Assembly: GCA_018334675.1 (NCBI GenBank)
Contig: JAGXLL010000011.1
Span: forward strand, 51-64,050
Origin: Bacteroidales bacterium
GTDB taxonomy: Bacteria; Bacteroidota; Bacteroidia; Bacteroidales; UBA12077
Reading direction: 5' to 3'
Length of the DNA stretch: 64,000 nucleotides
In this document: one piece after another, positions 23,685-43,984 of the stretch
Position numbering within the stretch: the stretch's first letter is position 1
How the letters are laid out: every line of letters starts with the position of its first letter
Notes under the pieces: model-generated
What the model was told of the DNA's origin: nothing
Seen by the model: only the letters and a program-made list of their open reading frames with translations
Databases searched by the model: none
Position numbers and translations under genes: made by a program

Positions 23685-23687
23685 AAT

Positions 23688-24074: not shown

Positions 24075-24098
24075 TTTCGTTGATTACGTATAAAACAT

Positions 24099-24148
24099 GC
24101 AGGAGTCATCAGCATTTAAGGCAGTTAAAGGTGAACCCCATCACCTGA
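24099..24148 (-). promoter_or_regulatory. Fluoride riboswitch (crcB RNA motif)
   Basis: The minus strand reads AGGUGAUGGGGUUCACCUUUAACUGCCUUAAAUGCUGAUGACUCCUGC. This gives P1 AGGUG/CACCU, a conserved GAUGGnGUUC core, an AAC linker and CUGAUGACUCC pseudoknot partner. It lies ~25 nt upstream of the crcB start. Confidence 0.85.
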
Positions 24149-24412
24149 GGCTCAAAAATAGTAAAAACCAGCGAGAATCAAACCTTGATTGCCCCGGATG
24201 TTTTTCGTACCTGCATCATGAAAACAGGTTCTTCCGGCAAATGTGTAGGTGAAATGTGAAAATAAACTGGAAGTCACAGGTCCGGGAGCTTCCCCTCCAT
24301 CCATAGACCCTGGCGTAAATTTACAACCGCCCACAGGAAATTTCTGGATGAAAAGATTGACATCTCAGGTATTCTTTGATAACTTAATGCTGCGACATAA
24401 AAACCGAGAATT

Positions 24413-25198: not shown

Positions 25199-25244
25199 AA
25201 AAAAATGCTACCTTTAGGGGCATGCAATAAGTAAATTTATAAAT

Positions 25245-25937: not shown

Positions 25938-25939
25938 TT

Positions 25940-26386
25940 TCAGGTCAACAAGCGAGATGCCAGCTCCAGTCCTGTTGCAGCCATCAGGGTGATCAGCCCA
26001 CTCCACAATACCACTCCGGTAAGCAGGAAAACCATCAGACGACGGGTTCGTTTGATCAGGGCCAATCCCAGCAAAGTAGAAAGAATCGGACCAATCAGGC
26101 CACAAGCAATCAACCCGAGGACTGCCACTCCATATCGTTCCATCAGTCTGGTGAAGCGGCCCTGCTGTTTCTCAACGTGCTTCTCACCAAATCGCCCCAA
26201 AACCCACTTCTTGAGCCTTTCTCCTGATAACAACAACACCAGCACCACAGTGATGGATCCCAACGCTGTGAACGCAGCCGTGACAAACGGGTGCGCATCT
26301 ATGGCGAAACCCACTGATATACCTTTCCAGATACCGGTGATACCGGCCAGATAAATGGTGGAGATTTGCACCCAAAGATTGCCCAT
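25940..26386 (-). CDS. Small integral membrane protein (possibly small multidrug-export-like)
   Basis: 148 aa with four hydrophobic segments. The family assignment is from memory only and is weak. Confidence 0.45.
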   Translation of the reverse strand: MGNLWVQISTIYLAGITGIWKGISVGFAIDAHPFVTAAFTALGSITVVLVLLLSGERLKKWVLGRFGEKHVEKQQGRFTRLMERYGVAVLGLIACGLIGPILSTLLGLALIKRTRRLMVFLLTGVVLWSGLITLMAATGLELASRLLT

Positions 26387-26477
26387 GCCAGGATTCTGAT
26401 TTATGGATGGATACTGTTTGGCAATCCCAAATTACAAACAAATTTTAATACCGCATAACCCCCATTCCTGCGAAGTA

Positions 26478-27062
26478 TCAACTCTTGTATGCCATATTCT
26501 CGGCCACAATCAGAAAATGGTTGGGCAGTTCCTGATGCGTCCGGATCGAACTGAAAGGAACGGTTTCCAGTTGCTTGATCACCTCATCTTCCCGGTAGCG
26601 TTTGCTTACAGGTGGTCCATGTGCGGTATCCTTCTTTTTCCAGTCTACAACGGCCAAACGTCCTTCAGGCTTCAGCACCCGTGCACATTCTTTCAGCAAA
26701 GCATGGGGATCATGGAATTCATGATGCAGGTTGATCATCACCAATACATCGGCTATATCATCTGGAAGGGGAATAACGGACTCCTCCATCTGAACCGGTT
26801 CGATGCGGGGATGCAGGGGGCTCACTTCTCGGTGTATATACTCGATCATGGCCTCCGAAATATCCAGGGCGTAAACCTTCTTCACTCCTTTCATCTCAGC
26901 AAAACGCACACTAAAAAAACCTGTCCCCGCTCCCAGATCGATCACAGTTTCGGGACGATCCACAGCCAGTGGCTTCCAGATGACCCCGGGAGGTATATCC
27001 TTGAGCCTTTGCGGATCGTTAAGATGCTCGAGTTTCGCCGGATCAAATTTGAATCCTTCCAT
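26478..27062 (-). CDS. Class I SAM-dependent methyltransferase
   Basis: 194 aa. Motif I VIDLGAGTGFFSVRFA and post-I acidic residue YALDIS. Confidence 0.85.
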   Translation of the reverse strand: MEGFKFDPAKLEHLNDPQRLKDIPPGVIWKPLAVDRPETVIDLGAGTGFFSVRFAEMKGVKKVYALDISEAMIEYIHREVSPLHPRIEPVQMEESVIPLPDDIADVLVMINLHHEFHDPHALLKECARVLKPEGRLAVVDWKKKDTAHGPPVSKRYREDEVIKQLETVPFSSIRTHQELPNHFLIVAENMAYKS

Positions 27063-27071
27063 AGCTCCGAT

Positions 27072-27785
27072 TTAATGCTGATTCGTATTCTTAATGATTT
27101 CAGGTATGTGCGAGATGTTGTCCACTTTAATCAGCGCGGGATGAGAAAGGTCCGACTCATCCAGCTCCTCATGTTTCCAGGTAGTGTGAAAAGGAACATA
27201 TACCCCATAAGATCCCAGCCCAAGTACAGGTAGAATATCCGATCTCAAAGAATTGCCCACCATCATAAAAGATTCAGGGGGCACATCCAGATGATTCAGC
27301 ATCTTCTTATAATCGCCTTCCTGCTTATCACTCATAATCTCGATGTGGTGAAAATAGCCTTCCAGCCCCGACTTTCTTAGCTTCCTTTCCTGGTCCAGCA
27401 AATCCCCCTTGGTGGCTACTATGAGTCTGAACTGCTCTCTGTGAAGTTCATCCAGCACCTCACGCACGCCATCAATAAGCTGAACAGGTTTGTTGATCAG
27501 ATCCTTGCCCAACTCAAGTATCTTATGGATGGTGCCTGCCGAGACCTGATCGCTGCTGATCCTCAGGGCAGTCTCAACCATAGATAAAATAAAACTCTTG
27601 GCTCCATAGCCGTATAACGGTATGTTGCCTACCTCGGTTTGGTAAAGCAGTTTTTCCACCTGCTCGCAGGGTGCATAATCACTTAATAAGGTACAAAAGC
27701 GCCTGGTGGTATCATAAAAGTAGGGTTCATTCACCCATAGGGTATCATCTGCATCAAATCCAATCACCTGAATTTTATTCATCAT
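27072..27785 (-). CDS. HAD-superfamily hydrolase
   Basis: 237 aa. Motif I IGFDADDTLW, motif II ATKG and motif III/IV MVGNSLRSD. Confidence 0.85.
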   Translation of the reverse strand: MMNKIQVIGFDADDTLWVNEPYFYDTTRRFCTLLSDYAPCEQVEKLLYQTEVGNIPLYGYGAKSFILSMVETALRISSDQVSAGTIHKILELGKDLINKPVQLIDGVREVLDELHREQFRLIVATKGDLLDQERKLRKSGLEGYFHHIEIMSDKQEGDYKKMLNHLDVPPESFMMVGNSLRSDILPVLGLGSYGVYVPFHTTWKHEELDESDLSHPALIKVDNISHIPEIIKNTNQH

Positions 27786-28055
27786 AACTTGCTATACAAA
27801 AATAAAGGGTTTACGGTTCAATCCAACCCTGGTGAGAAAATTTCTCTGCCGCTTATCACCGCCTTTTCCTGGGTGCACTTCGCGATATTAACGGTGGGGC
27901 TCCATCGCCACAGATAAGTAACGGCAAGGTTATGTATCCGGCGTCAAACTCCGGACAGAGAACCCTGCCGCAAACAGCAGTTACTTTGTTGCAAAAAAAT
28001 ATCATCCAGCCCCTTTGCTGATCAGCAAATCAAACCGGAAAAGAGGATGTTGGCT

Positions 28056-28610
28056 TTATTTCTCACCTAGTCCGGGAAATTTGTTGCGCACATATTCCAC
28101 ACCTTCCTTGGTGAAACGATAATGAGCCTGTCTGCCGACCTTGCTGACCTGCTCAACCAATTTGCGGGCTTTTTCAGCGTTCTTCATCAGATTGGAGGGA
28201 TTGCTCACCTTTATATCGTTTGCCTTAAGCGTGTTGGTAACATCCCGCACCTTAAATGTATTCTCTCCAGAGGCAAGCTGATTCAAATAAGCGGCTATCA
28301 GAGCCTTATCCGTATTCTTTAGCTTCTTGGGTACACTCCTCATCCATTCACCAACCTGATTGGCCTGGGTGGAAGTTTTCGCCTTGGGAGCGGCTTTCTT
28401 TCTGGTTTTAGTTTTAGTCGTTGCAGACTTCCGGGTAGTGGTTTTGGGTTTCGCTGTTTTGGTTTTGGTTTTGGTTCCGGTTACCTTCTCCTGAATACCA
28501 AGCTTTTCCTCCATCTCACGATATTGCTTGGTAACAAAATCTGAAGGCCCTTCAATGGAAATCTCAACTTCACCTACTTTAACATTAATTTTAGAATTGT
28601 TCTCATTCAT
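28056..28610 (-). CDS. Hypothetical protein with Lys/Thr-rich basic linker and winged-helix-like C-terminal domain
   Basis: 184 aa. N-domain, then TKTKTKTAKPKTTTRKSATTKTKTRKKAAPKAKT, then a C-terminal ~90-aa domain. Divergent from the giant-protein operon across an 800-nt AT-rich region. Confidence 0.55.
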   Translation of the reverse strand: MNENNSKINVKVGEVEISIEGPSDFVTKQYREMEEKLGIQEKVTGTKTKTKTAKPKTTTRKSATTKTKTRKKAAPKAKTSTQANQVGEWMRSVPKKLKNTDKALIAAYLNQLASGENTFKVRDVTNTLKANDIKVSNPSNLMKNAEKARKLVEQVSKVGRQAHYRFTKEGVEYVRNKFPGLGEK

Positions 28611-29322
28611 AACGATACATTTTTAATAGATAAATACAATTTTTCGAATACTTAAATATGGGTATACTAATTATATAATTCACTGAAAAAAACATTAACT
28701 GCGAAATGATGGCCACGCTCCTGTAATTCTTTAATAGATACAAGGCCGATCAGCTTTTTGTTTATATTTTCCTTATATAATTACTCAAAGAAAACGATTT
28801 TCCCTCGTATACAACGAAAAAACAAACGCGGGTAAAACACTTATTTACAGATCAATAACCCAATAAACAAACGCAGTATGACAATAGAACTATACCAATA
28901 ATGGGTATAAATATATAGTATAATATAATTGAATCCAAATAGTTGATTGATTATTTGGATCATTTATCAAAAAATGAATAGACTTTTCCACTTATTGAAT
29001 AATAATTCCTTCCTTATAAGTATTAGATAAAAAATTACATTTGATTAAAGATCAGAATTATAGCATTAAGATCCATATGAATGGATTATTTACCATAGTT
29101 CATTCTTCCATCATCATCTAATATGAATAGGAAAACACAAAAGAGTACTTATTTTCAATACCATACAGCATCAAGGCCGCTCCCGGTAAAAATTTTCCTC
29201 TTTTTTTTGACCCACTCCAGAATTAATTACGTGCTTACCCAATAAGGATAAAACCACAATTTTTGCTAATCAATCTTCAAATGGATTACAAGTCAAAATT
29301 GAAATCACAATAAAAAAACGGC

Positions 29323-29419
29323 ATTATGAAACCCACATGCACGATCTTACACAACAAGGACATGATTAAGCATGGGGGTTACATATGACCATAATAAATA
29401 AAAAGATAATCATATGAAA
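29323..29419 (+). promoter_or_regulatory. Conserved leader element copy A, containing a 20-codon uORF (29326-29388) and a hairpin over the main start codon
   Basis: 97 nt nearly identical to 55226-55322. The uORF encodes MKPTCTILHNKDMIKHGGYI. CATATGA (29382-29388) and TCATATG (29410-29416) form an inverted repeat that includes the uORF stop and the main ATG. Confidence 0.6.
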
Positions 29420-32400
29420 CATCAGCATGTTGTAGGCTATCGATTCCTTCTGCTCCTTGTATGGGCTATTTTTAGTGTATTAAAAACAAATGCTCAGGAT
29501 AACCCGGTAAGCATATCGGTACAGGTCATTCCTCCTTATTCGCCTTATTTTTCAGATTATATTGGCGAGAGCGGGAATATTACTTCCGAGTACAATGACT
29601 TGATCATGGTCACCCTCCAAAACACCGATATGAGCAACAGTTATCAGTTAAAGCTCATACCAACAATTTCATCCAACACGAATGTTTCAGTGGAAGTTCA
29701 GCCCGGCTTCACTCCCACCCGTCCGATCAGCCTGGCACCAGGAGAGACGAGGGTCCTCAACATGTCTGATTTAAAAGGCTATAATTCCAACCTCAACAAC
29801 AACCACATAGCCTATTCAGGGGTAAGCTACAACGAACTGGTGCAAACCGGGGTTCTACCTGAAGGCAATTATACGGTATGTATACAGGCCTATGACTATA
29901 ACACCTCCACACCTTTATCAAACAGTGAGCCGGGAGGCTGCAGCGCCGGCTTCTTGGTCTCTCATCCTGATCCACCGCAAATCACCTTTCCCGTGAACGG
30001 GTCGGAGATACTGGCGGGGGATCCACAAAACCTTCAGTTCAGCTGGACACCCCCGGCCGGCGGATCCGGTAATTATCAATACAACGTGCGTATTGTGGAG
30101 TTATCCGGCACCCAGCTGGATCCGTATTTCGTGATGAACAACAGCAACTATGCCTTTTACAGGGAGCAGGGTTTGATGGTACCTTCCCTGTTATATGACA
30201 TGAGCAAACCCACCCTGGAGCCTGGTAATACTTATGCTGTAAGGGTAACGGCCAATGATCCGCAGAGCCAGACGATGATCAAGAACCAGGGTCAGAGCGA
30301 GATACATGTATTCCGTGTACAGCAGGACACCGCTTTGTTGGCCGACACCACCTCCGAAGAGACAGCAGAGGAACAGCCAGCTTTTGCTTGCGGGGGAGAT
30401 TGTGATTTTGACCTCTCGGGCGTTGACCGCACGCCGGTTACCACTTTCCAAACCGGCGACATCATAAAAGTGGGCCATTATGAGGTACAGATCACAGGCG
30501 GCAACTGGTCGGGCGATCAGCTTACGGGAGAAGGAAAGATCCTGGCCACCGACTACATCCCTGTGGCTGTGAATGCCGATCTGATCAACCTGCAAATCAA
30601 TTCAAACGGCCGTGCCTTCAATGGCAAGGTGCAAGCTCAAGCCGGCAACACCAACCTTTTCAATCAAAGCATGCTTTCCGACATGGCCGGTCAGATCAAC
30701 CTCCCTCAAACGGATCCTTCCATCCTGTTCAACCAACTGAGTGATCCGGGCAGGCTACTGGCCAATCTTCAAAATGAAGCCACCATGGATCTGCCGTTGG
30801 GTATTGGGGCACCCGGCGACTACTATACGGTGGCTCTGGTGGGCATGGTGCTCAAACCTGAGAAAGCTACCATCAACACAGCCGCTATGATGGCGGCACC
30901 CGAAGAACAAAATAAATACCTGGCTTTTGGCGCCAAGAATGTGTGCATCAATCCCTCCGGTCTGGCAGCTTCTGATTCGATCCAAATGTCGCTGTTGGAG
31001 GATGTGAACATTCGGTTCTCCGATGATGTAAGCATGAAGCTTTCCACAACAGCCGGCAACGCCAGCACCTATGCAACAGCAGGATGTGAAGGCTTTGGCC
31101 GGGTATATGCTCAGGGCGATCTGATCATGTCGCCGGAAGTAATACGATATGAGAATCCTGATGGAACACAAAACACCCAGGATACGGTTAAGCTCAGCTT
31201 TGCCACCTCGTTTTCAGACTGGTCCGATTGGTTGATCGCCGCCAACCTCTTCGATGAGAACCGGCGCTATCAGTTCCCCGAGATGGAAGATTACAGCTTC
31301 CGGATTCAGCAAATGGTGCTGGATCACAGCGACCTGCGCAACGACCCCTCCCTGGTATTCCCCGACCAATATGCCTCGGCCGACCGCAATGCAACATGGA
31401 AAGGTCTGTACATCAAAGCCTTTAATATGATGATGCCCCGTTTCATCGACAAGAACGATGATCAACGCATCGAACTAACCGGTCGCAACATTCTGATCGA
31501 TCAGCATGGGGTTTCCACTTTCATCGAAGCCAACAACGTGCTTACTCAAAATGAAGGCAGACTGGGCGACTGGGCCTTCTCCATGGACTATCTGGCACTG
31601 GAGTTGGTAGCCAGCAGGCTGGACTCGGCCTCTATGAAAGGAGAGCTGCTGATGCCAATCTCCGATTCCAGCTTCAGCTATACCACTCATATGAGTTACC
31701 TCAACAGCCGGCTGGACTATGATTTCAATTTGGTTACCGCCGACGTGATCAATGTGCCCATGTGGTATGCGCAAATGGACCTGTATGAATCTTCCAGGCT
31801 GGATCTGACGATCAACACCAACAATGAGGTGACGATCCAGGCCATCCTCAACGGAAAACTTACCCTGGACAGTGAAGTCGGCGATTTCGACCAGGTGAAG
31901 ATCGGCGGTCTGGAGTTTGAGCAACTGGTCCTTCGCAATAAACCCCAATATATCAGAATGGACGGGGCCATGGCATTGGATGCCTCGGCCTCACCATCCC
32001 TGATGGGCTTTGGACTGAATCTGGGAGGCAACGGATCGGGATCCAACTCCGAATCCGGGGCTCTAAACGGTAGCCTGGACATTGGCCTGGATGAAGTGAG
32101 TTCCCGACGCACAGCCCTTTTCATGGATATGGGAATAAACTTCACCGGAAAGGGGGAGAGCAATTCGCTCTCAGGCAATACACGAATCAGCCTCGAAGCC
32201 CGCTATAATCCTCAACAGGTGAAATGGGAAAACGCCTCGGCTTCCATCGAACAAATTGAACTCGATGCCAACATGGGGATTATGGACATCTATGGGATGA
32301 TCCGGTTCTTTAAGGACAACCCGGTCTATGGAAAAGGTTTCCAGGGTACGCTTAACAGCCGGTTCTTAGAAACCATCAACGTGGATGTGAATGGACTGTT

Positions 32401-35356
32401 CGGTTCGGTAGACGACTACCGCTACTTCTATGTAGACGGCAAAGCCTCTTTTGGAGTCGGCGGCCTGGGTTTCTTCGGCCTCGGCATGTATGGCTTCGGC
32501 GGAGGTCTGGCCTACAATATGGAAAATACGTCCCTGCCCACTACCGACGACATCGCCCAAAACACATCAGGCGTACAGTCCGATTATGAACCCAAAGAAG
32601 GATCCTTGGCACTGAAGGCCACAGTAATGATGGGCCTCCAGGGTGATCCTAAGCCCTGGAACTCCGATGTGACCTTTGAAGTAGGATGGAACAATCAAAG
32701 CGGGCTGACCCGAATCGATATCGGTGGCGACTCCTATTTCATGCAGGAGCTGGCCGACCGGTCCAACCCCAAATTCAAAGGGACCCTGGACATGACCTAC
32801 AACTTTAACCAACAGCGGTTCATGGCAGCCGCCCAGACCGACATCCGTATACCTGCGCAGGATCCCAACATAACAGGAAATATGCCGGCCAACTTCCTGT
32901 TCGATTTTCAGCGGGGAGGAGGCCTGAGTGAGTGGTACATCAAATTTGGCGAACCCAGCGACCGCATCATCACCCATGTTGCCATCACCGAGGATATCTC
33001 CTTCACCAACGGCTCCTATTTCATGACCGGCTCGAACATTCCGGGCATGCCGCCTCCGCCACCCGCTATACTCCAGGAACTCGACATCAGCCAATCCAGT
33101 CAGCTGGCCCGACCCAATAACCATGCCATTGAAGCGGGAGCAGGTTTTGCCCACGGCCTCAAACTCGACTTCGAGCTGAACGAGATGGATGCAGTGATCT
33201 GCAACATCGACGCCCGTCTGATAGCTGGCTATGATATATCTGTCATGGACTGGTCGAGAGAAGGCATCCTGTGCAACGGCCGTTCAGAGTTTGGCGTGAA
33301 TGACTGGTATGCCAAAGGCCAGCTCTACTTCCTGGCCAGCGCACATTTCTATGGCAAAGGACCGAAGGAGATGACCTATTTCAGAACCTCGCTGGCCGCA
33401 CTGGCACAAGGAGGGCTGCCCAATCCCACCGGTGTGCGCGGCAAGGTACAGGCTACCTTCGACGTGGGCTGGAAAACCTGGAAACCTTCCAAAGAATTCT
33501 ACATCGGAGAGATATGTGAGATGTCCATTCCGGAAGATGCCGAGCCGGATATCGAAAATCCATACCAGGACGCCCAGTTCATCTCCAGGGTGAGCCCCGA
33601 CCAGGGAGGGGACAATATATCACCTATTGTAGTCCCTGAAGTCGAATTCAACTACCCGGTGGAAAAAATCAAAAATTTCACTTTCCCGGATGGAATGGGC
33701 GGAACAGTCAGCAAAACCTATAAGATCGGGTATGATCTCTACATCCGCGAAAACGGTTCTTCCAACCGCATCGACCTGAGCTCGGCTCCTTCCGGCAACA
33801 ACAGAGAACTGGAGATCACCATGAACGAACAATTGAAGCCGGAAACGGCCTATGAGATCGCAGCGGAAGCCACCCTCCTTCAAAAATCCGGGAACAACTG
33901 GAATGAAGTACGTGAAGGCAACCGCATCGTTCACGAGAAAGTCTCCAACACTTTCATAACCGGTAAGAAAGAGAAATTCAGTGACATCGATATAGCAGAA
34001 ATGACGCCGGTGAAACGGCAACGATACTTTAAAAAAGGAGACCATCCACAGGGATTGATCCGTTTCCGCACGAACATGGATGGATTCTTCAATCAGTATT
34101 CCGGTAAGCAGATTCAGGTGAAGTTCACTTCCCTCGATGAATCCGACGAGCATGTGGTGGATGCCAGCCTCTACAGCGACCGGCTCACATACCCCATGCC
34201 CGATCTGAATAAGGAAACCATCTACAGCGTTAAGATCCTTGCAGTAGACAGGGAGGAAGAAAGTTCAACATCTTCCGGCTATGGATGGTTCGGCAACAAC
34301 GGGTTTGCATTTTCTGTGCTGAACAATTCCGGCTCCAGCCAATCAGGTAGTTCGCAAAGCGGTTCCGGAAGCACCCAATCCGGAGGCTTCTCCACCGGCG
34401 TTCAAAGCACCCAATACAATTTTAACACCAACGCCACGGCCGCCGATGACCTGGAGCTGGACCCCACTGTTTTCGCTCCGGTGCTCTATGAATATCACTT
34501 CCGCACCAGTATGTTCAACACCCTGGGTGAGAAACTCAACAGCCTGCAGGATGCTGAAGTGTCCCTGGCCTATCAGAATGTGGGAGCTGAGACCGCTAAG
34601 AAGCTTACGATACGTCTTCAGGGCCCCGAGCGCTTTGAGGGATACCTCCAGAATCAAAACAATGAACTGGAATTTGAAGAGGTGACATATCGCCTCGAGC
34701 ACAACAACGGTGTAGAGGACGACTTTTTACCTGACTGGTACCTCAATAACGTGAATTATACTGTAAACAGCAGCCAATCCTGGACTGAAAAGGTTACCTA
34801 TCAGGTGCTCCGGCAAACAACCCCGTATGAAGCCTTTGGTCAGGACCCCTACCAGTTGAAAGGTTACTGGCAGGGAAGCGGCATATTGCCATCGTATTTT
34901 GACGGACCTCTTAGTGACCGCAACATCCAATACGGATGGGAACCCGACTACTCCAACTCCGGTAACTCCACGGGTTACGGATACCATACATCCTCCAACA
35001 CGCAGAACATCAATTTCAGTGCGAGCGGCACATTCGTGAATGCCAACGACCTGTCCCTGGGCAGCGATGCATATGACGCCTCCGAACTGACCACTGTGAT
35101 GGCTGTGGAAGTGACACTGGAACGTAAGATCCTGCGCGAATTCCAGAATGAAACGGTCCCGGCCGTGGAAGTGGCCAAACAATATGAAACAGGAGGTCCC
35201 GGTCAACCGGGTGGGGCACCTGGCACGAGTGGTGGCATGAGCACCACAGACCTGGAAAGCGCCCAATACCTATCCATGCCCAATGGCAATTACCAGATCC
35301 GGCTACGTATGACCGAAGGCAACACGTTAACTAAAACCGTCTACTTCAACTTTTAA
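29414..35356 (+). CDS. Giant (1980 aa) secreted beta-rich protein of unknown function
   Basis: Uninterrupted 5.9-kb ORF. Signal peptide ...VWAIFSVLKTNAQ, two N-terminal beta-sandwich-like modules, a Gly-zipper-like stretch, a PPPPP hinge and an S/G/Q linker. No catalytic motif recognised. Confidence 0.85.
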   Translation: MKHQHVVGYRFLLLLVWAIFSVLKTNAQDNPVSISVQVIPPYSPYFSDYIGESGNITSEYNDLIMVTLQNTDMSNSYQLKLIPTISSNTNVSVEVQPGFTPTRPISLAPGETRVLNMSDLKGYNSNLNNNHIAYSGVSYNELVQTGVLPEGNYTVCIQAYDYNTSTPLSNSEPGGCSAGFLVSHPDPPQITFPVNGSEILAGDPQNLQFSWTPPAGGSGNYQYNVRIVELSGTQLDPYFVMNNSNYAFYREQGLMVPSLLYDMSKPTLEPGNTYAVRVTANDPQSQTMIKNQGQSEIHVFRVQQDTALLADTTSEETAEEQPAFACGGDCDFDLSGVDRTPVTTFQTGDIIKVGHYEVQITGGNWSGDQLTGEGKILATDYIPVAVNADLINLQINSNGRAFNGKVQAQAGNTNLFNQSMLSDMAGQINLPQTDPSILFNQLSDPGRLLANLQNEATMDLPLGIGAPGDYYTVALVGMVLKPEKATINTAAMMAAPEEQNKYLAFGAKNVCINPSGLAASDSIQMSLLEDVNIRFSDDVSMKLSTTAGNASTYATAGCEGFGRVYAQGDLIMSPEVIRYENPDGTQNTQDTVKLSFATSFSDWSDWLIAANLFDENRRYQFPEMEDYSFRIQQMVLDHSDLRNDPSLVFPDQYASADRNATWKGLYIKAFNMMMPRFIDKNDDQRIELTGRNILIDQHGVSTFIEANNVLTQNEGRLGDWAFSMDYLALELVASRLDSASMKGELLMPISDSSFSYTTHMSYLNSRLDYDFNLVTADVINVPMWYAQMDLYESSRLDLTINTNNEVTIQAILNGKLTLDSEVGDFDQVKIGGLEFEQLVLRNKPQYIRMDGAMALDASASPSLMGFGLNLGGNGSGSNSESGALNGSLDIGLDEVSSRRTALFMDMGINFTGKGESNSLSGNTRISLEARYNPQQVKWENASASIEQIELDANMGIMDIYGMIRFFKDNPVYGKGFQGTLNSRFLETINVDVNGLFGSVDDYRYFYVDGKASFGVGGLGFFGLGMYGFGGGLAYNMENTSLPTTDDIAQNTSGVQSDYEPKEGSLALKATVMMGLQGDPKPWNSDVTFEVGWNNQSGLTRIDIGGDSYFMQELADRSNPKFKGTLDMTYNFNQQRFMAAAQTDIRIPAQDPNITGNMPANFLFDFQRGGGLSEWYIKFGEPSDRIITHVAITEDISFTNGSYFMTGSNIPGMPPPPPAILQELDISQSSQLARPNNHAIEAGAGFAHGLKLDFELNEMDAVICNIDARLIAGYDISVMDWSREGILCNGRSEFGVNDWYAKGQLYFLASAHFYGKGPKEMTYFRTSLAALAQGGLPNPTGVRGKVQATFDVGWKTWKPSKEFYIGEICEMSIPEDAEPDIENPYQDAQFISRVSPDQGGDNISPIVVPEVEFNYPVEKIKNFTFPDGMGGTVSKTYKIGYDLYIRENGSSNRIDLSSAPSGNNRELEITMNEQLKPETAYEIAAEATLLQKSGNNWNEVREGNRIVHEKVSNTFITGKKEKFSDIDIAEMTPVKRQRYFKKGDHPQGLIRFRTNMDGFFNQYSGKQIQVKFTSLDESDEHVVDASLYSDRLTYPMPDLNKETIYSVKILAVDREEESSTSSGYGWFGNNGFAFSVLNNSGSSQSGSSQSGSGSTQSGGFSTGVQSTQYNFNTNATAADDLELDPTVFAPVLYEYHFRTSMFNTLGEKLNSLQDAEVSLAYQNVGAETAKKLTIRLQGPERFEGYLQNQNNELEFEEVTYRLEHNNGVEDDFLPDWYLNNVNYTVNSSQSWTEKVTYQVLRQTTPYEAFGQDPYQLKGYWQGSGILPSYFDGPLSDRNIQYGWEPDYSNSGNSTGYGYHTSSNTQNINFSASGTFVNANDLSLGSDAYDASELTTVMAVEVTLERKILREFQNETVPAVEVAKQYETGGPGQPGGAPGTSGGMSTTDLESAQYLSMPNGNYQIRLRMTEGNTLTKTVYFNF

Positions 35357-35368
35357 AAACATTCAACC

Positions 35369-37423
35369 ATGAAATATTTCATAATAGGCTCGATGATCAT
35401 GCTGATGAGCATTACCGCTTATGCACAACAGAGCAACAGCAGCTTCCGGGTATTTTCAAAATACCAAAACGGCCAGGTGTATCTTAAGATACAGCCCATC
35501 GAAACCCAGGCCTGGTATGAAGCCCGGCAGAAAGGTTATGTCATTGAGAGAAAGGAACTGAATGGGGAAGAACCCTTTCAGGTAATCTCCTCCTCGCCTC
35601 TTGTTCCTTATTCACAGGAACGCATGAGGCAATTGGCACAGGAAGATCCATATACAGGTGAGCTCATGACCGTCCTTTACGATATGGAACAGATGGAAAA
35701 CCCTGATGAAATGAATTTTCCGCAGCTGGAAGAAAGGGCGAACAACCTGACAGGTACGATCTTCCTGCATTTCTATCTCTCATGCATGTCGCCTACCAGC
35801 AGCGAAGCTTCCGGTCTTCAGTTCACCGACATCGAAGCGCAGGCGAACCGGCAATATCAATACCGTGTGCGCATTAAAGGGGAAGAAGAAAATAGTGCGT
35901 CCGCGCGGGTAAACACATTCCGTGAAACGAGCCAGTCCCTGCCAATGGTCAACCTCAGGGGATTGGACAAAGCGGTTCAAATCAACTGGTACCATAAGGA
36001 TTATAGAGAGGTATACATTGGATATCGCATTGAAAAATCGGCCGACAGGAACAACTGGGGCTATCTGGGAGAGGCCCCCATCATCTATAACAAACGTGTA
36101 TCGAGTGAATCAGAAGATCTTGAACCGGGATATATTTACGAGGGAGACAGCCTGGAACGAAACTACAAGCCCTACTATTACCGGCTGACCGGCATCGACT
36201 TCTTCGGTCACCGCATGGGTCCCGGCCAGGTCTTTGAGGTTAGGGGCAGGGACCTTCAGGCTCCCGGCCAACCCCGGCAAGTTGAACTTGCCCATCAGGA
36301 TAACGGCAGCATGGAGCTCAGCTGGGATTATCCGGTCAACCAGACACCTGATCTGGCCGGTTTCTTTATTGGCCGGGGCCCGGAGCCTGAAGGTCCTTTC
36401 AAGCAAGTAAACCGGAATATGCTTCCCCCAAAATCCCGAAGCTACCAACTCGATCAACCCACTGAGCCCGGCATCACCTACTATGTTGTGACCGCCCTGG
36501 ATACAGCCGGCAACTATAAAAATTCCCTGACTGTATACGAATCGGTGCCCGATAACACACCTCCGGCTACACCTGATCGGCTGACAGGTTCAATCGACAC
36601 CAGTGGCGTGGTCACCCTTACCTGGCCGCGTGGAGAAGAAAACGACCTGATGGGTTACCGCCTCTACCGTTCCAACCAACCCGATCATGAATACGTACAG
36701 ATAACCCATGCCCCCCTGGCCGATACGATCCTGCGGGATACCATCACACTGCGAACACTAACCAAAGAAGTATTCTATAAAATAGTGGCGGTGGACAACA
36801 ATTATAACCACTCTCCCTTCTCTGCACCCGAGAAGGTGATAAGACCTGATGTGGTGCCCCCCGTGCCACCCCGTATCCGCAGCGTATCTCTGAATAACAA
36901 TACGGTGTCCGTTAAATGGGCAGCCAGCTCCAGCCGCGATGTGGAAGAAAATATCCTGCTCAGGCAGGACGGTGATGAATGGATGCAGGCAGGCACCTTT
37001 ACAGACCAAACCTCCTTCCGGGAGCCCCTTCCCGCCGACCGGCAACAAATAGTCTATGCCATGGTAGCCCGGGATAAAAGCGGCCTGTATTCCGATACAT
37101 CCGACACCCGTTCCGTTCGAAGCATAAAATTCTATAAACTGGAAACCGCCGCGGGCATTGAAGCCCGTTACAACCAGGAAGAGAAAAGGGTGCAGATCAA
37201 GTGGGACGGCCCGGGAGGAGACAATATATTCTATATCATATACAGAGGAACCCCGGAAAAAGGTCTCCGCATGTACCAAACTGCCGACAACGGAAAATCC
37301 AGTTTCTCAGACAACCGGCTGGTGCCGGGCAGGGAATACCAGTATGCCATCCGGGTAAAACGAGCCGATGGCAAAACCAGCCCGCTCAGCGACCGGGTAA
37401 CGGTACAGGTTAACAATCCATAA
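35369..37423 (+). CDS. Secreted protein with ~6 fibronectin-type-III-like repeats
   Basis: 684 aa. Signal peptide MKYFIIGSMIMLMSITAYAQQ. Recurrent FN3-style strands (YIGYRIEKS, GFFIGRG, MGYRLYRSN, FYIIYRG; YQYRVRI, YQYAIRV). Begins 12 nt after the giant ORF. Confidence 0.8.
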   Translation: MKYFIIGSMIMLMSITAYAQQSNSSFRVFSKYQNGQVYLKIQPIETQAWYEARQKGYVIERKELNGEEPFQVISSSPLVPYSQERMRQLAQEDPYTGELMTVLYDMEQMENPDEMNFPQLEERANNLTGTIFLHFYLSCMSPTSSEASGLQFTDIEAQANRQYQYRVRIKGEEENSASARVNTFRETSQSLPMVNLRGLDKAVQINWYHKDYREVYIGYRIEKSADRNNWGYLGEAPIIYNKRVSSESEDLEPGYIYEGDSLERNYKPYYYRLTGIDFFGHRMGPGQVFEVRGRDLQAPGQPRQVELAHQDNGSMELSWDYPVNQTPDLAGFFIGRGPEPEGPFKQVNRNMLPPKSRSYQLDQPTEPGITYYVVTALDTAGNYKNSLTVYESVPDNTPPATPDRLTGSIDTSGVVTLTWPRGEENDLMGYRLYRSNQPDHEYVQITHAPLADTILRDTITLRTLTKEVFYKIVAVDNNYNHSPFSAPEKVIRPDVVPPVPPRIRSVSLNNNTVSVKWAASSSRDVEENILLRQDGDEWMQAGTFTDQTSFREPLPADRQQIVYAMVARDKSGLYSDTSDTRSVRSIKFYKLETAAGIEARYNQEEKRVQIKWDGPGGDNIFYIIYRGTPEKGLRMYQTADNGKSSFSDNRLVPGREYQYAIRVKRADGKTSPLSDRVTVQVNNP

Positions 37424-37507
37424 TAAACCGTCCATCTCTATGGAAAAACACGAATGATAACAGCGACAAACAGGATAAACACCCAATTGATAAACCAAAA
37501 AAACAGG

Positions 37508-39178
37508 ATGATGCGTATATTGATACTACTATTGCTTGGGGCTTTGGCCATGCCCCACTTCACATCGGCACAGGATATCGGACAGGTAGGAAAAGGCGAT
37601 GCCCTGGATCTAACCGGATCACTAAGCTTCAGCACAGGCTACTACAATACCAGCCTGGGCTATAACCGGCAAGATCCTTTTGCCTACAGGCTTACAGGTA
37701 ACGCTGTGTTGTCGGTCTATAACTGGCAGATTCCCTTTACGCTCTCCTATGCCAATCAGCAGTTCAACTCCAGCAATCCCTTTCAACAGTTTGGCATATC
37801 ACCCCGTTACAAATGGATCAGGATGCATGCAGGCTACTCCAGCATGTCCTTTTCCCCCTACACCCTGAACAACCATACCTTCCTGGGTGGAGGCCTGGAA
37901 ATCACTCCCGGTAAGTTCCGCTTTAGCGTGATGTATGGCAGGCTACGTGAACGCCAGAGCATGGTTGAGAACCAACTGATGTCTTTCAGGCCGCCTGCCT
38001 ATAAACGATTGGGCTATGGCATGAAGATCGGCTATGGCACGGCACAGAACCACCTCGATCTGATTGTTTTCAAGGGCAAAGACGATACCACTTCCCTGTC
38101 CCCTTCTGCCAACCTACCCATTCTTCCTGCCGAAAACCTTGTAGTGGGTATATCTACACGGTTGCAGCTGCTGAAAAATGTGAGTTGGGAGGTACATGCC
38201 AGCGGAAGCGCTTATACACGTAACCTTTACTCCGATCCTTTGGCGGCCGAAGAGATCAACCTACCCAATTTCCTCACCAACTTATATGAACCCAGGTTCT
38301 CGAGCCGGTTCAATTATGCGGGTCACACCTCCCTGAACCTTCAGCTGGGCAACTTCGGCATCAAAGGAACCTACCGCAGGGTGCAGCCCGAATACAAGTC
38401 CATGGGCGTGTATTACCTGAAAAATGATGTGGAACAATATACCATCGCCCCGAACTTCCGGCTTTTCAAAGGCAGGGTAAGCCTCTCCGCCTCCCTGGGC
38501 ATCGAACAGGACAACCTGATGGACAACAAGGCGGTCACCACCCACCGGCAGATCGGATCGGCCAATCTGAACTGGAACACACGCGGGGCTTTCGGCATGA
38601 ACGTACAGTACTCCAACTATCAACTTGATCAAAATCCCGCCTTGCTGAATCTCAACGACACCACCAAAATAGCCCGGGTCAACAGGAACCTGTCGGTCAT
38701 GCCCCGGCTCATCTACCGGAAGGATCAAAAAACACACCAAATAACCCTCTATGCCAATAATCAAACTCTGACCGACAACAATCCCTTTACAGCAGAGATG
38801 ACCGAGACCGACTCCTATACCGGTAACCTGTCCTATGGATACCGCAACGCCAAAAGCGGATGGAACACGAAATCCAGCCTGAACTATACCCAATTGCAAA
38901 CCCCGGTCAATGAGATAGTACGCTATGGCATCACCGCAGGCATTGGCAAAAGCTTGTTTGACGACCGCCTGCAAACAAATCTCAGGACATCCTACAGCCG
39001 GAACAATGTGGACCAGAGCAATGCCGGCCACATCCTGAATTTTCACCTGAATCTGGGATACCGGGTACAATCAGGACATTCACTCAACCTGACGTTAAAG
39101 CTGACGGACAACGAAACCTCCAATGTCAATTTCACGGAAAACATGGCGAATCTGCAGTATACGTACCGGTTCAGATAA
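37508..39178 (+). CDS. Putative outer-membrane beta-barrel (porin-like) protein
   Basis: ATG at 37508 gives the signal peptide MMRILILLLLGALAMPHFTSAQ. Alternating-hydrophobic strand pattern throughout and a C-terminal ...LQYTYRF aromatic OMP signature. Confidence 0.72.
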   Translation: MMRILILLLLGALAMPHFTSAQDIGQVGKGDALDLTGSLSFSTGYYNTSLGYNRQDPFAYRLTGNAVLSVYNWQIPFTLSYANQQFNSSNPFQQFGISPRYKWIRMHAGYSSMSFSPYTLNNHTFLGGGLEITPGKFRFSVMYGRLRERQSMVENQLMSFRPPAYKRLGYGMKIGYGTAQNHLDLIVFKGKDDTTSLSPSANLPILPAENLVVGISTRLQLLKNVSWEVHASGSAYTRNLYSDPLAAEEINLPNFLTNLYEPRFSSRFNYAGHTSLNLQLGNFGIKGTYRRVQPEYKSMGVYYLKNDVEQYTIAPNFRLFKGRVSLSASLGIEQDNLMDNKAVTTHRQIGSANLNWNTRGAFGMNVQYSNYQLDQNPALLNLNDTTKIARVNRNLSVMPRLIYRKDQKTHQITLYANNQTLTDNNPFTAEMTETDSYTGNLSYGYRNAKSGWNTKSSLNYTQLQTPVNEIVRYGITAGIGKSLFDDRLQTNLRTSYSRNNVDQSNAGHILNFHLNLGYRVQSGHSLNLTLKLTDNETSNVNFTENMANLQYTYRFR

Positions 39179-39310: not shown

Positions 39311-40603
39311 TTACATCTGTCCGATAAACCCTCCGGTAAGACGTGTGAGGTTGGTTCGTGAGTCGATCAGGTTGTATATCGAGCGCAGCCTTTGAAGGGC
39401 AGCATTGATATATATAAGTTGTATGTCCCGGTAATTAAAGGAGTTGATGGTTCCGTTGCGGAACTTCTCCTGGGCGATCTCCAGGTTGAGCTCGGCTGCC
39501 TCCAGATTCTCTTCAGCCACCTGCAACAGGTTGGTGCGCACATCATAGCGGTCGTATTCATTATAGAGCACATTGATCAGGCTGTGTTTGATCTCATCCG
39601 TCTCGGTTTGCGTGATCTCTTCATTGACTCTGGCCACCTCAACGGCACGTTTACGGGTACCGCCCGTATAGATGTCGTAGCTCAGGGTGAGGTTGGCAAA
39701 AGGCGATATGGATTCACGGGTAACCGGGTCGAGTCCTTCATTTTGGGTTCTCGACCATGAATTGTCGACCCCTGCTGAAAGTCTTAGCGAAGGATACAGG
39801 TCACTTTCCTGCAGCCTCACCTGGTCTTTCTGCAGCATCAGGTTGGCATATTGGTTCTGAAGGGTCTGGTTATTGGAAAGCATCTTATCCAACAAATCAC
39901 TGAGCTTGTAGGAAGAAGTATCTGCCTGGAAGGAGTCGGTGAAGTTCCACCGCTGATTGGGCTCTTCTCCAAGAACAAAATTCAGGTTGCGGATGGCGTT
40001 GCGCAGCACGACCTGCTGATTCAGATAGGCAGAGGAATCTTCAAGGTACACATTCTTGGCCTGAAGCACATCGTAGCTCAGTGCACTGCCCAGCTCCCGG
40101 CGCATCACCTCATAGCGGTAACGGTCGCCCGAGAGGCGCATCACCCGCTGAAGCACCTCGAGCTGTTCCTCTTGTAGGAGGACGTTATAATATCCCTGAA
40201 TGACATCCTGTATGGTGTTTTCCACTACCACGGCTGAACGGCCTTTGGCAAGGGTTTCCAGAGTATTCAGCCTGCTCTTGGTGACCTGAACCCGGTAACC
40301 ATCAAAAAGGGTCCAGTTCAGACCTATACCCCCGAAAAGGTTATTGGAGGAAGAATTGTTGAGGGCATCGAAGTTGTTGGAAGAGGTGGCATCGAAACCC
40401 ACCCTGGGATATCGCCCGGCGGTGCCCCAGTTGTTGTTGATCGAGGCAATCTCTTCCTGGGACTTGGAGATAATGATGCCGTAATTGTTGTCAAGTGCTT
40501 TTTCCAGGGCCGCTGAAAGTGTCAGGTTCTCCTGGGCCGGCAGGCCTGAAGCAAGCAGAAGCAATCCCGGGAGGGCTGCCGCATATTTTATGATTCGAAA
40601 CAT
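39311..40603 (-). CDS. TolC-family outer membrane efflux protein
   Basis: 430 aa. Signal peptide, LTLSAALEKALDNNYGI start and duplicated coiled-coil/barrel repeat pattern. Last gene of the RND operon. Confidence 0.88.
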   Translation of the reverse strand: MFRIIKYAAALPGLLLLASGLPAQENLTLSAALEKALDNNYGIIISKSQEEIASINNNWGTAGRYPRVGFDATSSNNFDALNNSSSNNLFGGIGLNWTLFDGYRVQVTKSRLNTLETLAKGRSAVVVENTIQDVIQGYYNVLLQEEQLEVLQRVMRLSGDRYRYEVMRRELGSALSYDVLQAKNVYLEDSSAYLNQQVVLRNAIRNLNFVLGEEPNQRWNFTDSFQADTSSYKLSDLLDKMLSNNQTLQNQYANLMLQKDQVRLQESDLYPSLRLSAGVDNSWSRTQNEGLDPVTRESISPFANLTLSYDIYTGGTRKRAVEVARVNEEITQTETDEIKHSLINVLYNEYDRYDVRTNLLQVAEENLEAAELNLEIAQEKFRNGTINSFNYRDIQLIYINAALQRLRSIYNLIDSRTNLTRLTGGFIGQM

Positions 40604-40696
40604 ATTTTCATCTTTTTTTGAGCGTATGTGAATACAAGGTTCCTAAAAACTCCAGATTGTCCATGGGGTCTACCCGTTTAATACTTTTGAAACGTT

Positions 40697-43600
40697 CTAC
40701 TTTTCTTTATCCTCTTGCGATCCGGAGGAGAGGCTGCTGTTGTTGGCCTCCATGACTGCTCCTGTACCGTTGGTTTCATACCTCCTTCGGCGGTTTTGCA
40801 GCATGATGGCCACTTCAACCTCTTCCGGCCGGGGCTTGGTGCCTGTCCATAGATATTTGAAGTACACCCGCACATCGTTCAGCAACATGATCAGCACGGG
40901 AAAGAATATCAGAATAAAGATGGTTCCGATAAATACACCATAGGCCAGGCTGATGGCCATAGGTATCAGAAACTGTGCCTGAACGCTCTTTTCCAGGATG
41001 ATCGGAAACAGACCGACTGTAGTGGTGATACTGGTCAGGATGATGGGGCGAAGCCTTAATTTCCCTGCCTCCACCACAGCATCTCTCACCTTATGGCCTT
41101 TGAGAAGCAAATTATCGTATTTGGCAAGGAACACGATGGCGTCATTGATGATCACACCAGTCAGGGCAATCATCCCCCAAAGACTTATGATGGACAGGGG
41201 TTTTCCATGAATGCCATGCCCCCAGAAAACTCCGAGCATCGAGAGGGGGATCATGGCCAGGATGATCACCGTTTGATTGACGCTCTTAAAATGCAGCACC
41301 ATCACGAATATGATGATGATGAAGGCGATCAAAAAGTACCCTCCCACCCGGGAAAGGGCTTCATTGCTGTGTTTGGCCTGCCCCTGCTCCATATATCGTA
41401 TCCCGCTGAAACGCGCTTGCACCTGCGGCATGATCTCACGCTCAATCTGCCCGATGATCTCCGGGACCGATGCATAGGGGTCGACCGTCTCGGCTTCAAC
41501 ACGTATCTCGCGCGAACCGTTATAGCGATTGATGGCCACCGGGCCCCGTTCCAGATGATAATCGGCCAGCTCGATCAAAGGGAATTCCCCGCCGGGGGTC
41601 TTGATCTTCATCTTCTCCATCTGACCGCGGGTGAGTCGATCATCTTTGGGATACCGCACCCAAACCCGAAGCTCATCGCGGCCATCCTGCAGGCGTTGTG
41701 CCTGGCCGCCGTAGAAACCCTGCCGGACCTGGGTGGCAATAGCAGCCTCGTCCAGCCCGAGGAAATAGGCTTTGGGCTTAAGATCCAGCCGTACCTCCTG
41801 CTTGCCCAGGGCCACATTCTCCGTGATATCCTTAAGCTGGGGCAGCTCCGTAAGGAGATCCATCAAATAGTTCTTGGCCTCCTCCAGCTCATCCAGGTTC
41901 CTCGACATCAACCCGATGGACACGGGTGAGCCCCAGCGGCTTCTTCCTCCGGCAGTATATTTTCGCGCTTCGGGCACCGGACCGATCTTCTCACGAACCA
42001 TATTGGCAATCTTATAACCACTCAACGGCAACCCTTCCAGGTCAACCGGATAGACACGGATATTACCTGCATGCGCCCCCCTTTCCTGCCCCCGGAAAGC
42101 AAAGCCCATGGTCGAGCTCACACGCTCAATGATATCGGTATCCGTGTCCACCTGTTCCTTCAAATCATCATTCACCTCCCAGATGGCAGCCTCAAAGCGC
42201 CTGAGGTATTCCTTGGTCTGTTTTTCTCCATCACCCGGGGTGAAAGCCACATTCACCTCAAAACTGTCGAAATCCACCATCGGAAAGAAGGTATTCTTGA
42301 TGTGGCCTCCGTAGTACAAGCCGGCGGTGATCAGTATCAAGGCAATGGGAATGGCCACTACCGCATGGCGGTATTTCACCAGCCAATGCAGCATGTAATG
42401 ATAGATGCTCTCGCGCAGCCAGATAATGAAACCTTCAAAATACCTCTTGATTCCTTTTCTCTTGGCCTGATGGCTTTTGCGGTTCAACACGCGGTGGCTG
42501 CTCAGGTGAGCCGGAAGGACAAAGAAAGCCTCGAAAAGGGAAAAGAACAGGGCGCCCACTACCACAATGGCCATGTGGTACATCATCTCCATACGGGTGC
42601 CCGACAAAAACAACAACGGTGAGAAGGCCACAATGGTAGTGGTGATGGATGTCAGCACGGCCGGTAAGACCTCCATGGTACCCTCCACAGCAGCTTTCAT
42701 CGGACTCATACCGTTTTCAAAATACAAATAGATGTTTTCCGCGATCACAATCCCATCATCCACCAATATACCGATCACCAGGATCATACCGAAAAGAGAG
42801 ATCATGTTGATGGTAATGCCCAACTGATAAGCCATTATGAACATCGCCAGGAAGCTGAAGGGAATACCGAAAGATACCCAGAGGGACAGACGGATGCTCA
42901 GAAAAAGTGAAAGAGACAAAACCACCAGCAACAACCCGATCGTCCCGTTTTTGGTAAGCAGATCGAGCCGGCTTTGCAAGATATCCAGAAAAGCCCTGGA
43001 CACATCCAGCTGCACACCCTGATTCCGGGCATTAAAATCCTCCATGTACTGGTTGGCATATTCGGTTATGGCCTCCAGGTCCTCTTCCGGAAGCTTCTCC
43101 ACATTGATGGAGATGGCTTGTTGACCATTGACCCAGGACTCATAGGAAGTATCGGCAAATTTCTTCTTGACTTCGGCTACATCCCGGATACGCAAGAAGC
43201 CACCATCGGGTTTTCCCCTGAGGATGATATGACCGATCTTATTGGGATCGGTGCTGCGTGAACGCAACCGGATGAGCAGTTCCTCCTCGGCCGATTTGAT
43301 CTGACCACCCGATATATCGCGGTTATTCGAGCGTATGGCATTCATGATCTCAGCAAAGGTCAGGTCGTAGCGCAGCAAAGCCTCTTCTTTTATCTCAACG
43401 GAGAGTTCAGGAGAAGGGAAGCCGGATAGGCTGACCTGGCTCATCACACCTGAATTGAATAGATCCTCCTCGATGCGTTGGGCATGGTCTTTCAGGGTCA
43501 TCAAATCCACCTGCGACCCATCAACCGGCCGCAGAGACATACGCACCCCCGGCGAACGGGAGCGCCTCTTGGAAACAATAGGACGCTCTGCCGCGGAGGG

Positions 43601-43963: not shown

Positions 43964-43984
43964 TCATTCAATTGAAAAGGGTTA

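Follow-up and report, generated by a model that had tools for sequence, protein, structure and literature searches.

What do three adjacent genes for very large or otherwise unassigned secreted proteins build together, and by which route does their largest product leave the cell? This question is raised by a trio of genes in a stretch of 64,000 nucleotides (nt) from an uncultured Bacteroidales bacterium of the lineage UBA12077 (assembly GCA_018334675.1, contig JAGXLL010000011.1, positions 51 to 64,050 of the forward strand), here called the window and numbered from its first letter. The genes encode a giant β-rich protein, a protein with FN3 repeats and an outer-membrane β-barrel protein (Table 1). 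A first-pass annotation had proposed that they form an undescribed envelope system with a passenger, an accessory and a barrel, and comparative genomics favors this logic. The trio is best read as one copy of a module widespread among Bacteroidota, in which a giant protein with an N-terminal "address" is combined with a cognate barrel of about 26 strands. On balance, we consider it probable that the module is a dedicated, two-partner-like device for export across, or display on, the outer membrane, with the address, the cognate barrel as conduit or anchor, and the FN3 protein as accessory. This reading is based on the association of the genes, the modular architecture of the giant, the model of the barrel and the Sec signals, and on the fact that no homology to known machineries was found.

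The three genes are co-directional. Coordinates of the open reading frames (ORFs) gave a distance of 12 nt between the giant and the FN3 gene. The gap between the FN3 and the barrel gene is 30 nt for the longest ORF, or 84 nt from an internal start codon (MMRIL, 37508) that was adopted because homologues begin there; gaps of 12 and about 85 nt had been annotated. Signal peptides were read straight from the sequence, using n-, h- and c-regions and a small-x-Ala motif followed by Gln. Cleavage is predicted at FSVLKTNA↓QD in the giant, MSITAYA↓QQ in the FN3 protein and MPHFTSA↓QD in the barrel protein, the signal peptide of which comprises amino acids (aa) 1-21. The classical signal peptides annotated for all three products were thus found again, and none of the three sequences contained a lipobox cysteine. 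The first mature codons are located at 29495, 35426 and 37571, and all three predicted mature proteins start with Gln. Substrates of signal peptidase I (SPase I) in Bacteroidetes typically begin with Gln, which forms an N-terminal pyroglutamate; hence, these N-termini would fit a native location in the Bacteroidota envelope. Besides the Sec signals, invariant Cys pairs in the family are an extracytoplasmic feature.

Table 1. Features of the three-gene locus, with positions in the window.
Feature	Position	Strand	Remarks
AT-rich intergenic spacer 5' of the giant gene	28611-29413		803 nt
Giant gene, TANFOR type, "type I" β-rich body	29414-35356	+	1980 aa
Sec (SPase I) signal peptide of the giant	29414-29494	+	aa 1-27; mature N-terminus Gln
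TANFOR-like Ig-type domain, aa 32-182	29507-29959	+	invariant Cys156/Cys176, LPEGNY motif
FN3-like second module, aa 186-305, motif PGNTYAVRVTANDP	29969-30328	+	
β-rich core, aa ~330-1390	30401-33583	+	AlphaFold2 model, strand analysis, profile mapping
Sub-threshold Ig-like Pfam matches (Big_5, Ig_Rha78A_N), then S/G/Q-rich linker, aa ~1636-1668	33584-34513	+	
Lineage-specific C-terminal region, aa 1701-1980	34514-35353	+	no toxin domain recognised
FN3-repeat accessory gene	35369-37423	+	684 aa; signal peptide aa 1-19
Barrel gene	37508-39178	+	homology-supported start, 556 aa; longest ORF from 37454, 574 aa

The barrel protein was modeled by AlphaFold2 together with 46 homologues (predicted local distance difference test, pLDDT, 86.1; predicted template modelling score, pTM, 0.75). 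The model consists of about 26 β-strands, 25 long and one short, and has neither a plug nor a periplasmic domain. Thus, the annotation of the third product as an outer-membrane barrel ending in YTYRF was borne out. A Foldseek comparison with the PDB returned MtrB first (6r2q_B, E 3e-11, query TM-score, TMq, 0.55), then the FimD/PapC usher pores (E ~1e-9, TMq 0.26-0.46), followed by SlpA, TonB-dependent barrels and LptD. In the Mtr complex, MtrB ensheathes a threaded protein, and ushers let Ig-fold subunits pass; furthermore, LptE in LptD, MtrA in MtrB and the plugs of ushers are folded domains residing inside a barrel of such size. Judged from the model, the lumen of the window barrel may be wide enough for an Ig-sized domain.

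No match to the barrel sequence was obtained from Pfam, NCBIfam, PADLOC or the PDB, and Pfam assigned none of the 46 homologues to a family. An exhaustive search of 1.84 billion representatives with the barrel profile revealed 3,533 relatives at E ≤ 1e-3, of which 1,820 reached E ≤ 1e-30; at 50% identity, the family thus counts no fewer than 1,820 clusters. Among the top 150 matches listed, nearly all relatives are 545-585 aa long. These proteins thus form a large, uniform and unannotated family of outer-membrane proteins. A close relative of the window barrel was not found among the GTDB representatives.

The barrel was then used as seed for a scan with one genome per species, which returned 80 loci; 82 loci were tallied overall. 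They originated from Sphingobacteriales, Chitinophagales, Cytophagales, Flavobacteriales, Bacteroidales and Lentimicrobiaceae and also from Ignavibacteria, Kapaibacterium and a metagenome-assembled genome (MAG) of Chloroherpeton. The barrel was present in all 82 loci, and wherever the contig permits, a giant with the N-terminal module follows it directly (gap ~0-20 nt). The commonest gene order is barrel, giant, FN3; for example, Pedobacter africanus and Filimonas lacunae encode a barrel homologue, then a giant of 2,356-2,509 aa and then an FN3 protein of 666-678 aa. A cyclic permutation of this order, giant, FN3, barrel, is found in the window and in its close relatives, namely two metagenome contigs and one Marinilabilia MAG. 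Their flanking genes all differ and represent three unrelated genomic contexts, therefore the module is self-contained. Co-conservation of the trio, for which the first-pass annotation had suggested a synteny check, was thus found among Bacteroidota and beyond them in Ignavibacteria, Kapaibacteria and Chloroherpeton, and the association of the three genes is close to certain. That three unrelated genes for secreted proteins became neighbors by chance, for which only the lack of annotation speaks, can be dismissed with near certainty: the genes stay adjacent in five or more bacterial classes and in either of two orders, their junctions overlap or measure 12 nt, and one case is a fusion.

In L001 (8469-9989) and 32 other loci from Sphingobacteriaceae, a lipoprotein gene lies directly upstream of the barrel gene; its product has repeats of the collagen-like GxxGxxG type and of the type "GDYYLD...LYGPK". 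Near these loci, genes for a LytTR response regulator and a histidine kinase are conserved, too. The lipoprotein was considered as a fourth gene of the module and set aside, being specific for Sphingobacteriaceae and absent from the window.

What do the giants have in common? Distant ones mostly align to the window giant over aa ~1-300 only, with 29-41% identity. Profile mapping distinguished "type I" giants, which share the core of the window giant, from "type II" giants such as those of Pedobacter, which share only the first ~300 aa. The identity to distant type I giants decreases from 25-41% in the N-terminal module to 17-27% in the core and 8-14% at aa 1701-1940. The barrel likewise stays conserved (29-39% identity), while the body of the giant diverges or is replaced. 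The N-terminus of the window giant contains two modules, the first ending with EGNYTVC..AYD (aa 150) and the second with GNTYAVRVTAND (aa 271). These modules with their GNY/GNTY strands had been annotated correctly and are the most conserved part of the giant family; as a TANFOR-like plus an FN3-like domain they constitute the N-terminal module of ~300 aa common to every giant in the family. The TANFOR profile TIGR02542 matched the giant over model positions 4-144/145 with 34-37 bits (E 2.3e-8 to 3.2e-9); the NCBIfam cut-off is 67 bits, therefore this match denotes homology and not a curated call.

Jana, Salomon & Bosis 2020 (PMC7073777) described 339 TANFOR-containing proteins as proposed polymorphic toxins of Bacteroidetes. 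Many of them have C-terminal toxins and immunity genes, most have Sec signals, and Fn3, PKD, SprB and type IX secretion system C-terminal (T9SS-CTD) domains are enriched near their genes (PMC7073777). The window giant belongs to this class because its N-terminus consists of a TANFOR-like and an FN3-like domain. It resembles the class in the position of the TANFOR domain behind a Sec signal, in its very large size and in the Fn3 protein next door. It differs in having no recognisable C-terminal toxin, in its TIGR02542 score below the cut-off, and in that no immunity gene follows directly downstream, where the FN3 and barrel genes and then a convergent TolC-like gene are found. The window giant is 61% identical to an orthologue from Marinilabilia salmonicolor. 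Supplemental Data 1 (row 320) of the published study lists this orthologue with 1,993 aa, followed by proteins of 686 aa (+11 nt) and 553 aa (+74 nt), and the authors accepted it as TANFOR at E 4e-13; barrel-sized neighbors of 559-561 aa in Salibacter and Dyadobacter are listed as well (PMC7073777). The study leaves this trio and the barrel-sized neighbors uninterpreted and identifies neither the barrel nor an export route (PMC7073777). A literature search on TANFOR, DUF5723 and citing papers, with subscription journals outside its coverage, revealed no paper that describes the barrel or a way of export. The term "undescribed" in the first-pass annotation must therefore be narrowed: the giant falls into a published class and the trio appears in a published supplement, but the barrel partner was not recognised there. 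The new element is the barrel family, which appears to be a near-universal partner of the TANFOR address, as it neighbors a TANFOR-type gene in almost all loci sampled from either side.

This partnership was also analyzed from the TANFOR side, using a degenerate DNA motif for LPEGNYxxCxxAxD and hence sampling only modules with that exact motif. The motif was found at 118 loci, all within ORFs matching the TANFOR profile. In 70 loci, the upstream sequence measures 2,300 nt or more, and 57 of these (81%) encode a barrel immediately upstream. The other 48 loci have less upstream room, and in 26 of them a barrel is cut by the edge of the sequence block. At least one exception carries the barrel downstream, like the window. 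Furthermore, TANFOR-type proteins were found by homology in three loci with the order giant, FN3, barrel (L086, L088 and L297).

The address is shared with bona fide toxin-type proteins. Profile mapping showed that toxin-type TANFOR proteins share aa ~14-440 of the window giant. In eight of eight related loci from Flavobacteriaceae, a barrel homologue is encoded directly upstream of a TANFOR gene (852-1,956 aa), and in two of these a gene for an immunity-like NADAR protein comes next. In Flavobacterium sp. ASW18X, a protein of 808-817 aa, the first ~555 aa of which are a barrel homologue (31% identity, E 1e-62), directly precedes a TANFOR protein of 1,886 aa, followed by a NADAR gene. The C-terminus of this TANFOR protein (L087) looks by eye like an ADP-ribosyltransferase (ART) with an R-S-E pattern; Pfam detected nothing on six toxin-type C-termini including this one. 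The barrel of the Flavobacteriaceae variant (L087, L089-L096) has a K/E-rich helical C-terminal tail of ~250 aa and a total length of ~808 aa. Locus L093 of Allomuricauda sp. d1 (7524-19818) encodes a barrel, a TANFOR protein, a NADAR protein and then a secreted protein of 1,634 aa, which is the β-core of the window giant standing alone with its own signal peptide.

Two observations bear on contact between barrel and address. The protein P0302 (L098, 4827-7676) combines a signal peptide, a TANFOR module, an FN3-like domain and the barrel in a single chain; the domain matches scored 115 and 539 bits, and the ORF extends upstream to a start at MEQQISNF. Additionally, Pedobacter frigidisoli RP-3-11 carries two complete systems with different giant types (L025 and L076), and in a neighbor-joining tree without support values their barrels group with barrels of other genera that have the same giant type and not with each other. 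Both observations indirectly support a putative contact of the barrel with the N-terminal module and a putative barrel-dependent export. A second TANFOR giant is encoded downstream of P0302 in L098. TANFOR-motif contigs were also found in MAGs binned as Hyphomicrobiales, Breoghania and Halioglobus (L231, L233 and L245); they are either contaminants of the binning or rare cases beyond Bacteroidota and their relatives.

The core of the giant was examined with an AlphaFold2 model of aa 320-1500 of moderate confidence (pLDDT 75.6, pTM 0.41), which consists nearly entirely of long antiparallel strands. These strands are amphipathic and span 10-18 residues; strand analysis showed a strict alternation of hydrophobic and charged residues at aa ~805-1351. 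The core contains a conserved Gly-rich strand pair (aa ~1013-1038) and a PPPPP break. The annotated landmarks are thereby confirmed, namely the β-rich core, a stretch rich in Gly (aa 1016), the PPPPP hinge (aa 1213) and, behind them, the S/G/Q linker (aa 1639). Foldseek matched the core solely to outer-membrane barrels (LptD, SlpA), full-length LptD and the β-belt of ApoB100, with TM-scores of 0.12-0.16, which denote local resemblance, hence no fold was assigned. An alignment of the barrel and giant profiles with hhalign gave no relation, therefore the giant carries no copy of the barrel, and searching the PDB with the giant profile returned nothing.

These matches would fit a stable envelope machine instead of an exporter, in which the core is a sheet binding lipids or other hydrophobic molecules, or a second barrel, and the 26-strand barrel is the outer-membrane end, as in LptD/LptE or AsmA-type systems. 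The alternating strands at aa 805-1351 and the resemblance of the barrel to barrels of LptD size would agree with this. We nevertheless consider such a machine quite improbable. The TM-scores do not allow assignment of a fold, neither LptD nor OstA nor AsmA profiles matched, and the body of the giant is replaced by type II sequence or toxins while barrel and N-terminal module stay. The module is moreover patchy, sometimes duplicated and found in unrelated contexts, and therefore unlike an essential biogenesis machine.

At the other end of the giant, the C-terminal region is 42-59% identical to that of nine close relatives and 8-14% to that of distant type I giants. The last folded piece behind the Gly-rich linker amounts to only ~35 aa. 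The C-terminal VYFNF was considered as the β-signal of an outer-membrane protein; this candidate was dropped, as it is conserved among close relatives only. The giant may also be a polymorphic toxin whose C-terminal toxin and immunity gene were not recognised, barrel and FN3 protein then serving for delivery in the manner of CdiB/CdiA. This would be in line with the N-terminal module shared with bona fide toxin-type TANFOR proteins (PMC7073777), with the ART-like C-terminus and NADAR genes of L087 and L093, and with the position of the last ~280 aa behind a flexible S/G/Q linker and their replacement in distant relatives. However, Pfam revealed no toxin domain on the C-terminal 450 aa of 61 giants, the one of the window and 60 others, picking up only two upstream SprB/CTD proteins, and Pfam and NCBIfam found no toxin family on the whole window giant. 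Furthermore, its C-terminus is conserved among the nine close relatives and not swapped, and 3' of the barrel gene no small co-directional gene exists, the next one being the convergent TolC-like gene. A toxin function of the window giant thus seems improbable; it is compatible with the export or display model.

Another route must be weighed, namely export of the giant by the T9SS, with the barrel serving solely as a partner for surface attachment or shuttling, analogous to PorV or, for type B CTD proteins, to SprF/PorP. T9SS export of TANFOR proteins has been speculated, a T9SS exists in more than 95% of the genomes that encode TANFOR proteins, and SprB-repeat and Por_Secre_tail genes are enriched nearby (PMC7073777). 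We also found such genes beside the relatives L083, L085, L087, L297 and L298. The trio further recalls the T9SS type B pair SprB-SprF, in which a giant surface protein of Bacteroidota has a small-family outer-membrane barrel of its own encoded next to it, often near other T9SS substrates. In the giant and the FN3 protein, however, Pfam and NCBIfam (E ≤ 1) detected neither a type A (TIGR04183/PF18962) nor a type B (TIGR04131) CTD. The conserved element of the giant is N-terminal instead of a C-terminal CTD, the C-terminus being its least conserved part. The barrel matches no PorP/SprF or PorV model, and Pfam found no PorP_SprF domain on it or on 45 homologues. PorP/SprF and PorV barrels have ~14 strands and are thus much smaller than one of ~26. 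Finally, no Por_Secre_tail match was obtained on the nearby genes scanned (22870-28610 and 39311-48678). Taken together, we regard the T9SS as an unlikely route for the giant.

The second product had been annotated as about six FN3-like repeats. Pfam and a PDB profile search revealed four clear FN3 domains (aa ~297-680), but the N-terminal ~275 aa were not assigned to any fold by profile searches. The PDB yielded generic FN3 arrays only. The family is constant in length (~660-720 aa, median 668 aa). Of the 82 barrel-seeded loci, 60 encode a member, in each case immediately behind the giant. Across loci, the FN3 gene starts 12 nt downstream of the giant gene or overlaps it; its translation is probably coupled to that of the giant.

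Does the trio belong to any characterised secretion system? Pfam (E ≤ 1) detected no usher, Omp85/POTRA, TonB-dependent receptor or plug, LptD, PorP/SprF, T9SS CTD or two-partner secretion (TPS) domain on the three proteins, the NCBIfam result was the same, and PADLOC gave no match at the system level. This agrees with the earlier statement that no known system is matched by motif.

A close parallel is two-partner secretion and contact-dependent inhibition (TpsB-TpsA, CdiB-CdiA; type Vb), where a gene for a dedicated outer-membrane barrel also lies beside that of a giant cargo, a conserved N-terminal cargo domain is the pairing element, and body and C-terminus vary and include versions with toxin and immunity protein. 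In contrast to these systems, the window barrel is not of Omp85 type, has ~26 strands and lacks POTRA domains; Pfam gave no match to ShlB, POTRA or Bac_surface_Ag at E ≤ 1 on the barrel and its homologues. TpsB barrels have 16 strands. Moreover, the address is an Ig/FN3-type module and not a β-helical TPS domain, for which (haemagglutination activity) neither Pfam nor NCBIfam found a match on the giant, and an extra FN3 protein is present. Chaperone-usher systems (FimD/PapC, FimC/PapD) share an usher-like barrel body, an Ig-fold accessory and Ig-fold modules at the N-terminus of the cargo; however, the window barrel has no plug and no usher N- or C-terminal domains, its cargo is one giant chain instead of polymerising pilins, and Usher and PapD profiles of Pfam did not match the trio.

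The 26-strand barrels of MtrB-MtrA-MtrC and LptD-LptE are similar insofar as MtrB is the best structural match and a three-component operon is involved. The differences from Mtr are the lack of a CxxCH haem motif in all three proteins, the lack of a sequence match to MtrB and the unrelated partners; those from LptD/LptE are the lack of an LptD/OstA profile match and of a lipoprotein in the operon, and the patchy, sometimes duplicated occurrence of the module. Inverse autotransporters (intimin/invasin, type Ve) also have an N-terminal membrane-proximal element and a C-terminal Ig-rich passenger, and P0302 is likewise one chain. Barrel and passenger are, however, normally encoded by separate genes in the present family, IAT_beta did not match, and the barrel has ~26 strands, compared with 12 in inverse autotransporters. 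TonB-dependent and SusC-like proteins are 22-strand barrels; the window barrel differs from them by the absence of Plug and TonB_dep_Rec matches and of a plug in the model.

For the dedicated export or display module we therefore propose the following sequence of events. Sec would carry all three proteins across the inner membrane, and the barrel would insert into the outer membrane without a plug or periplasmic domain. The N-terminal module of the giant would then dock in or on the barrel, and the rest of the chain would pass to the surface or be anchored there. For the FN3 protein and the cargo, we infer roles as follows: the FN3 protein with its constant length may be a periplasmic or surface accessory acting as chaperone, adaptor or stalk, and the cargo behind the address would vary, being here the core of ~1,100 aa with the lineage-specific C-terminus and elsewhere a toxin with its immunity gene.

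Several points weigh against this proposal. The adjacency of the genes would equally fit a role in anchoring or assembly without translocation. The core of the giant might itself be membrane-associated, because it gives weak local matches to the outer-membrane barrels LptD and SlpA. Closure of the barrel and the size of its lumen were deduced from the DSSP strand count and the Foldseek matches. The motif-seeded sample overlaps the barrel-seeded one taxonomically and is limited to modules with the exact motif, and the P0302 fusion is known from one metagenome contig. Finally, the toxin-type loci of Flavobacteriaceae lack the FN3 protein, and the barrel there has the helical tail of ~250 aa; thus, the FN3 protein is not essential to the pair of barrel and giant.

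We rate the module as a partner-barrel secretion logic built from unrelated parts. Whether it amounts to more is a matter on which our confidence stays somewhat short of even: possibly, the barrel family and the TANFOR plus FN3 module constitute an unrecognised export or display pathway and a new type of secretion system, unrelated to Omp85, ushers, T9SS and Slam, which would handle both polymorphic toxins and giant β-rich surface proteins and employ the accessory of ~670 aa in its large-cargo versions. The exit route of TANFOR proteins was left open in 2020, with the T9SS as a guess, and the adjoining barrel turns this question into a testable one. If confirmed, the model would add a new route of outer-membrane export or display in a major phylum and provide 1,800 or more clusters (50% identity) of barrel proteins now called "hypothetical" with a function. 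The address of ~300 aa could serve as a portable tool for surface display. The β-rich core of ~1,100 aa, which also exists as a stand-alone secreted protein, is a second point of interest.

The surroundings of the trio were analyzed as well. The GC content of the three genes is 0.50-0.53 and thus near the value of the window. The AT-rich region of ~800 nt annotated upstream of the giant gene proved to be a spacer of 803 nt. It contains a single Bacteroidetes-type -7 motif (TAnnTTTG) at 29036 and gave zero matches to Rfam, and a comparison with the orthologous trios L083 and L085, which are preceded by spacers of 48 and 245 nt, revealed no conserved part. Consequently, the unusual regulation that had been suspected was not supported. 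The same holds true for a leader with an upstream ORF shared with a redox operon, as the divergent neighbors encode a 184-aa protein, a HAD hydrolase and an S-adenosylmethionine (SAM) methyltransferase. The 184-aa protein (28056-28610, minus strand), divergent from the spacer, has a K/T/P-rich center of low complexity and no Pfam or NCBIfam match.

On the other side, an efflux operon of the resistance-nodulation-division (RND) type (39311-45172, minus strand), encoding a TolC-like outer membrane efflux protein, an AcrB-family pump and a HlyD-family adaptor, runs convergently towards the 3' end of the barrel gene. In other genomes, this operon has no relation to the trio module, and the AcrB homologue of the window is 86-90% identical to those of several MAGs. 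Further downstream, a subtilase (46378-48678, plus strand; Peptidase_S8 with I9 propeptide) with two Big_7 Ig domains is encoded, which showed no T9SS CTD at E ≤ 0.001. Apart from this region, the GC content drops to 0.34-0.39 (compared to ~0.48-0.50) at 9000-11000, beside the only tRNA gene of the window (tRNA-Pro, 9316-9391); this part could be an integration site or an island.

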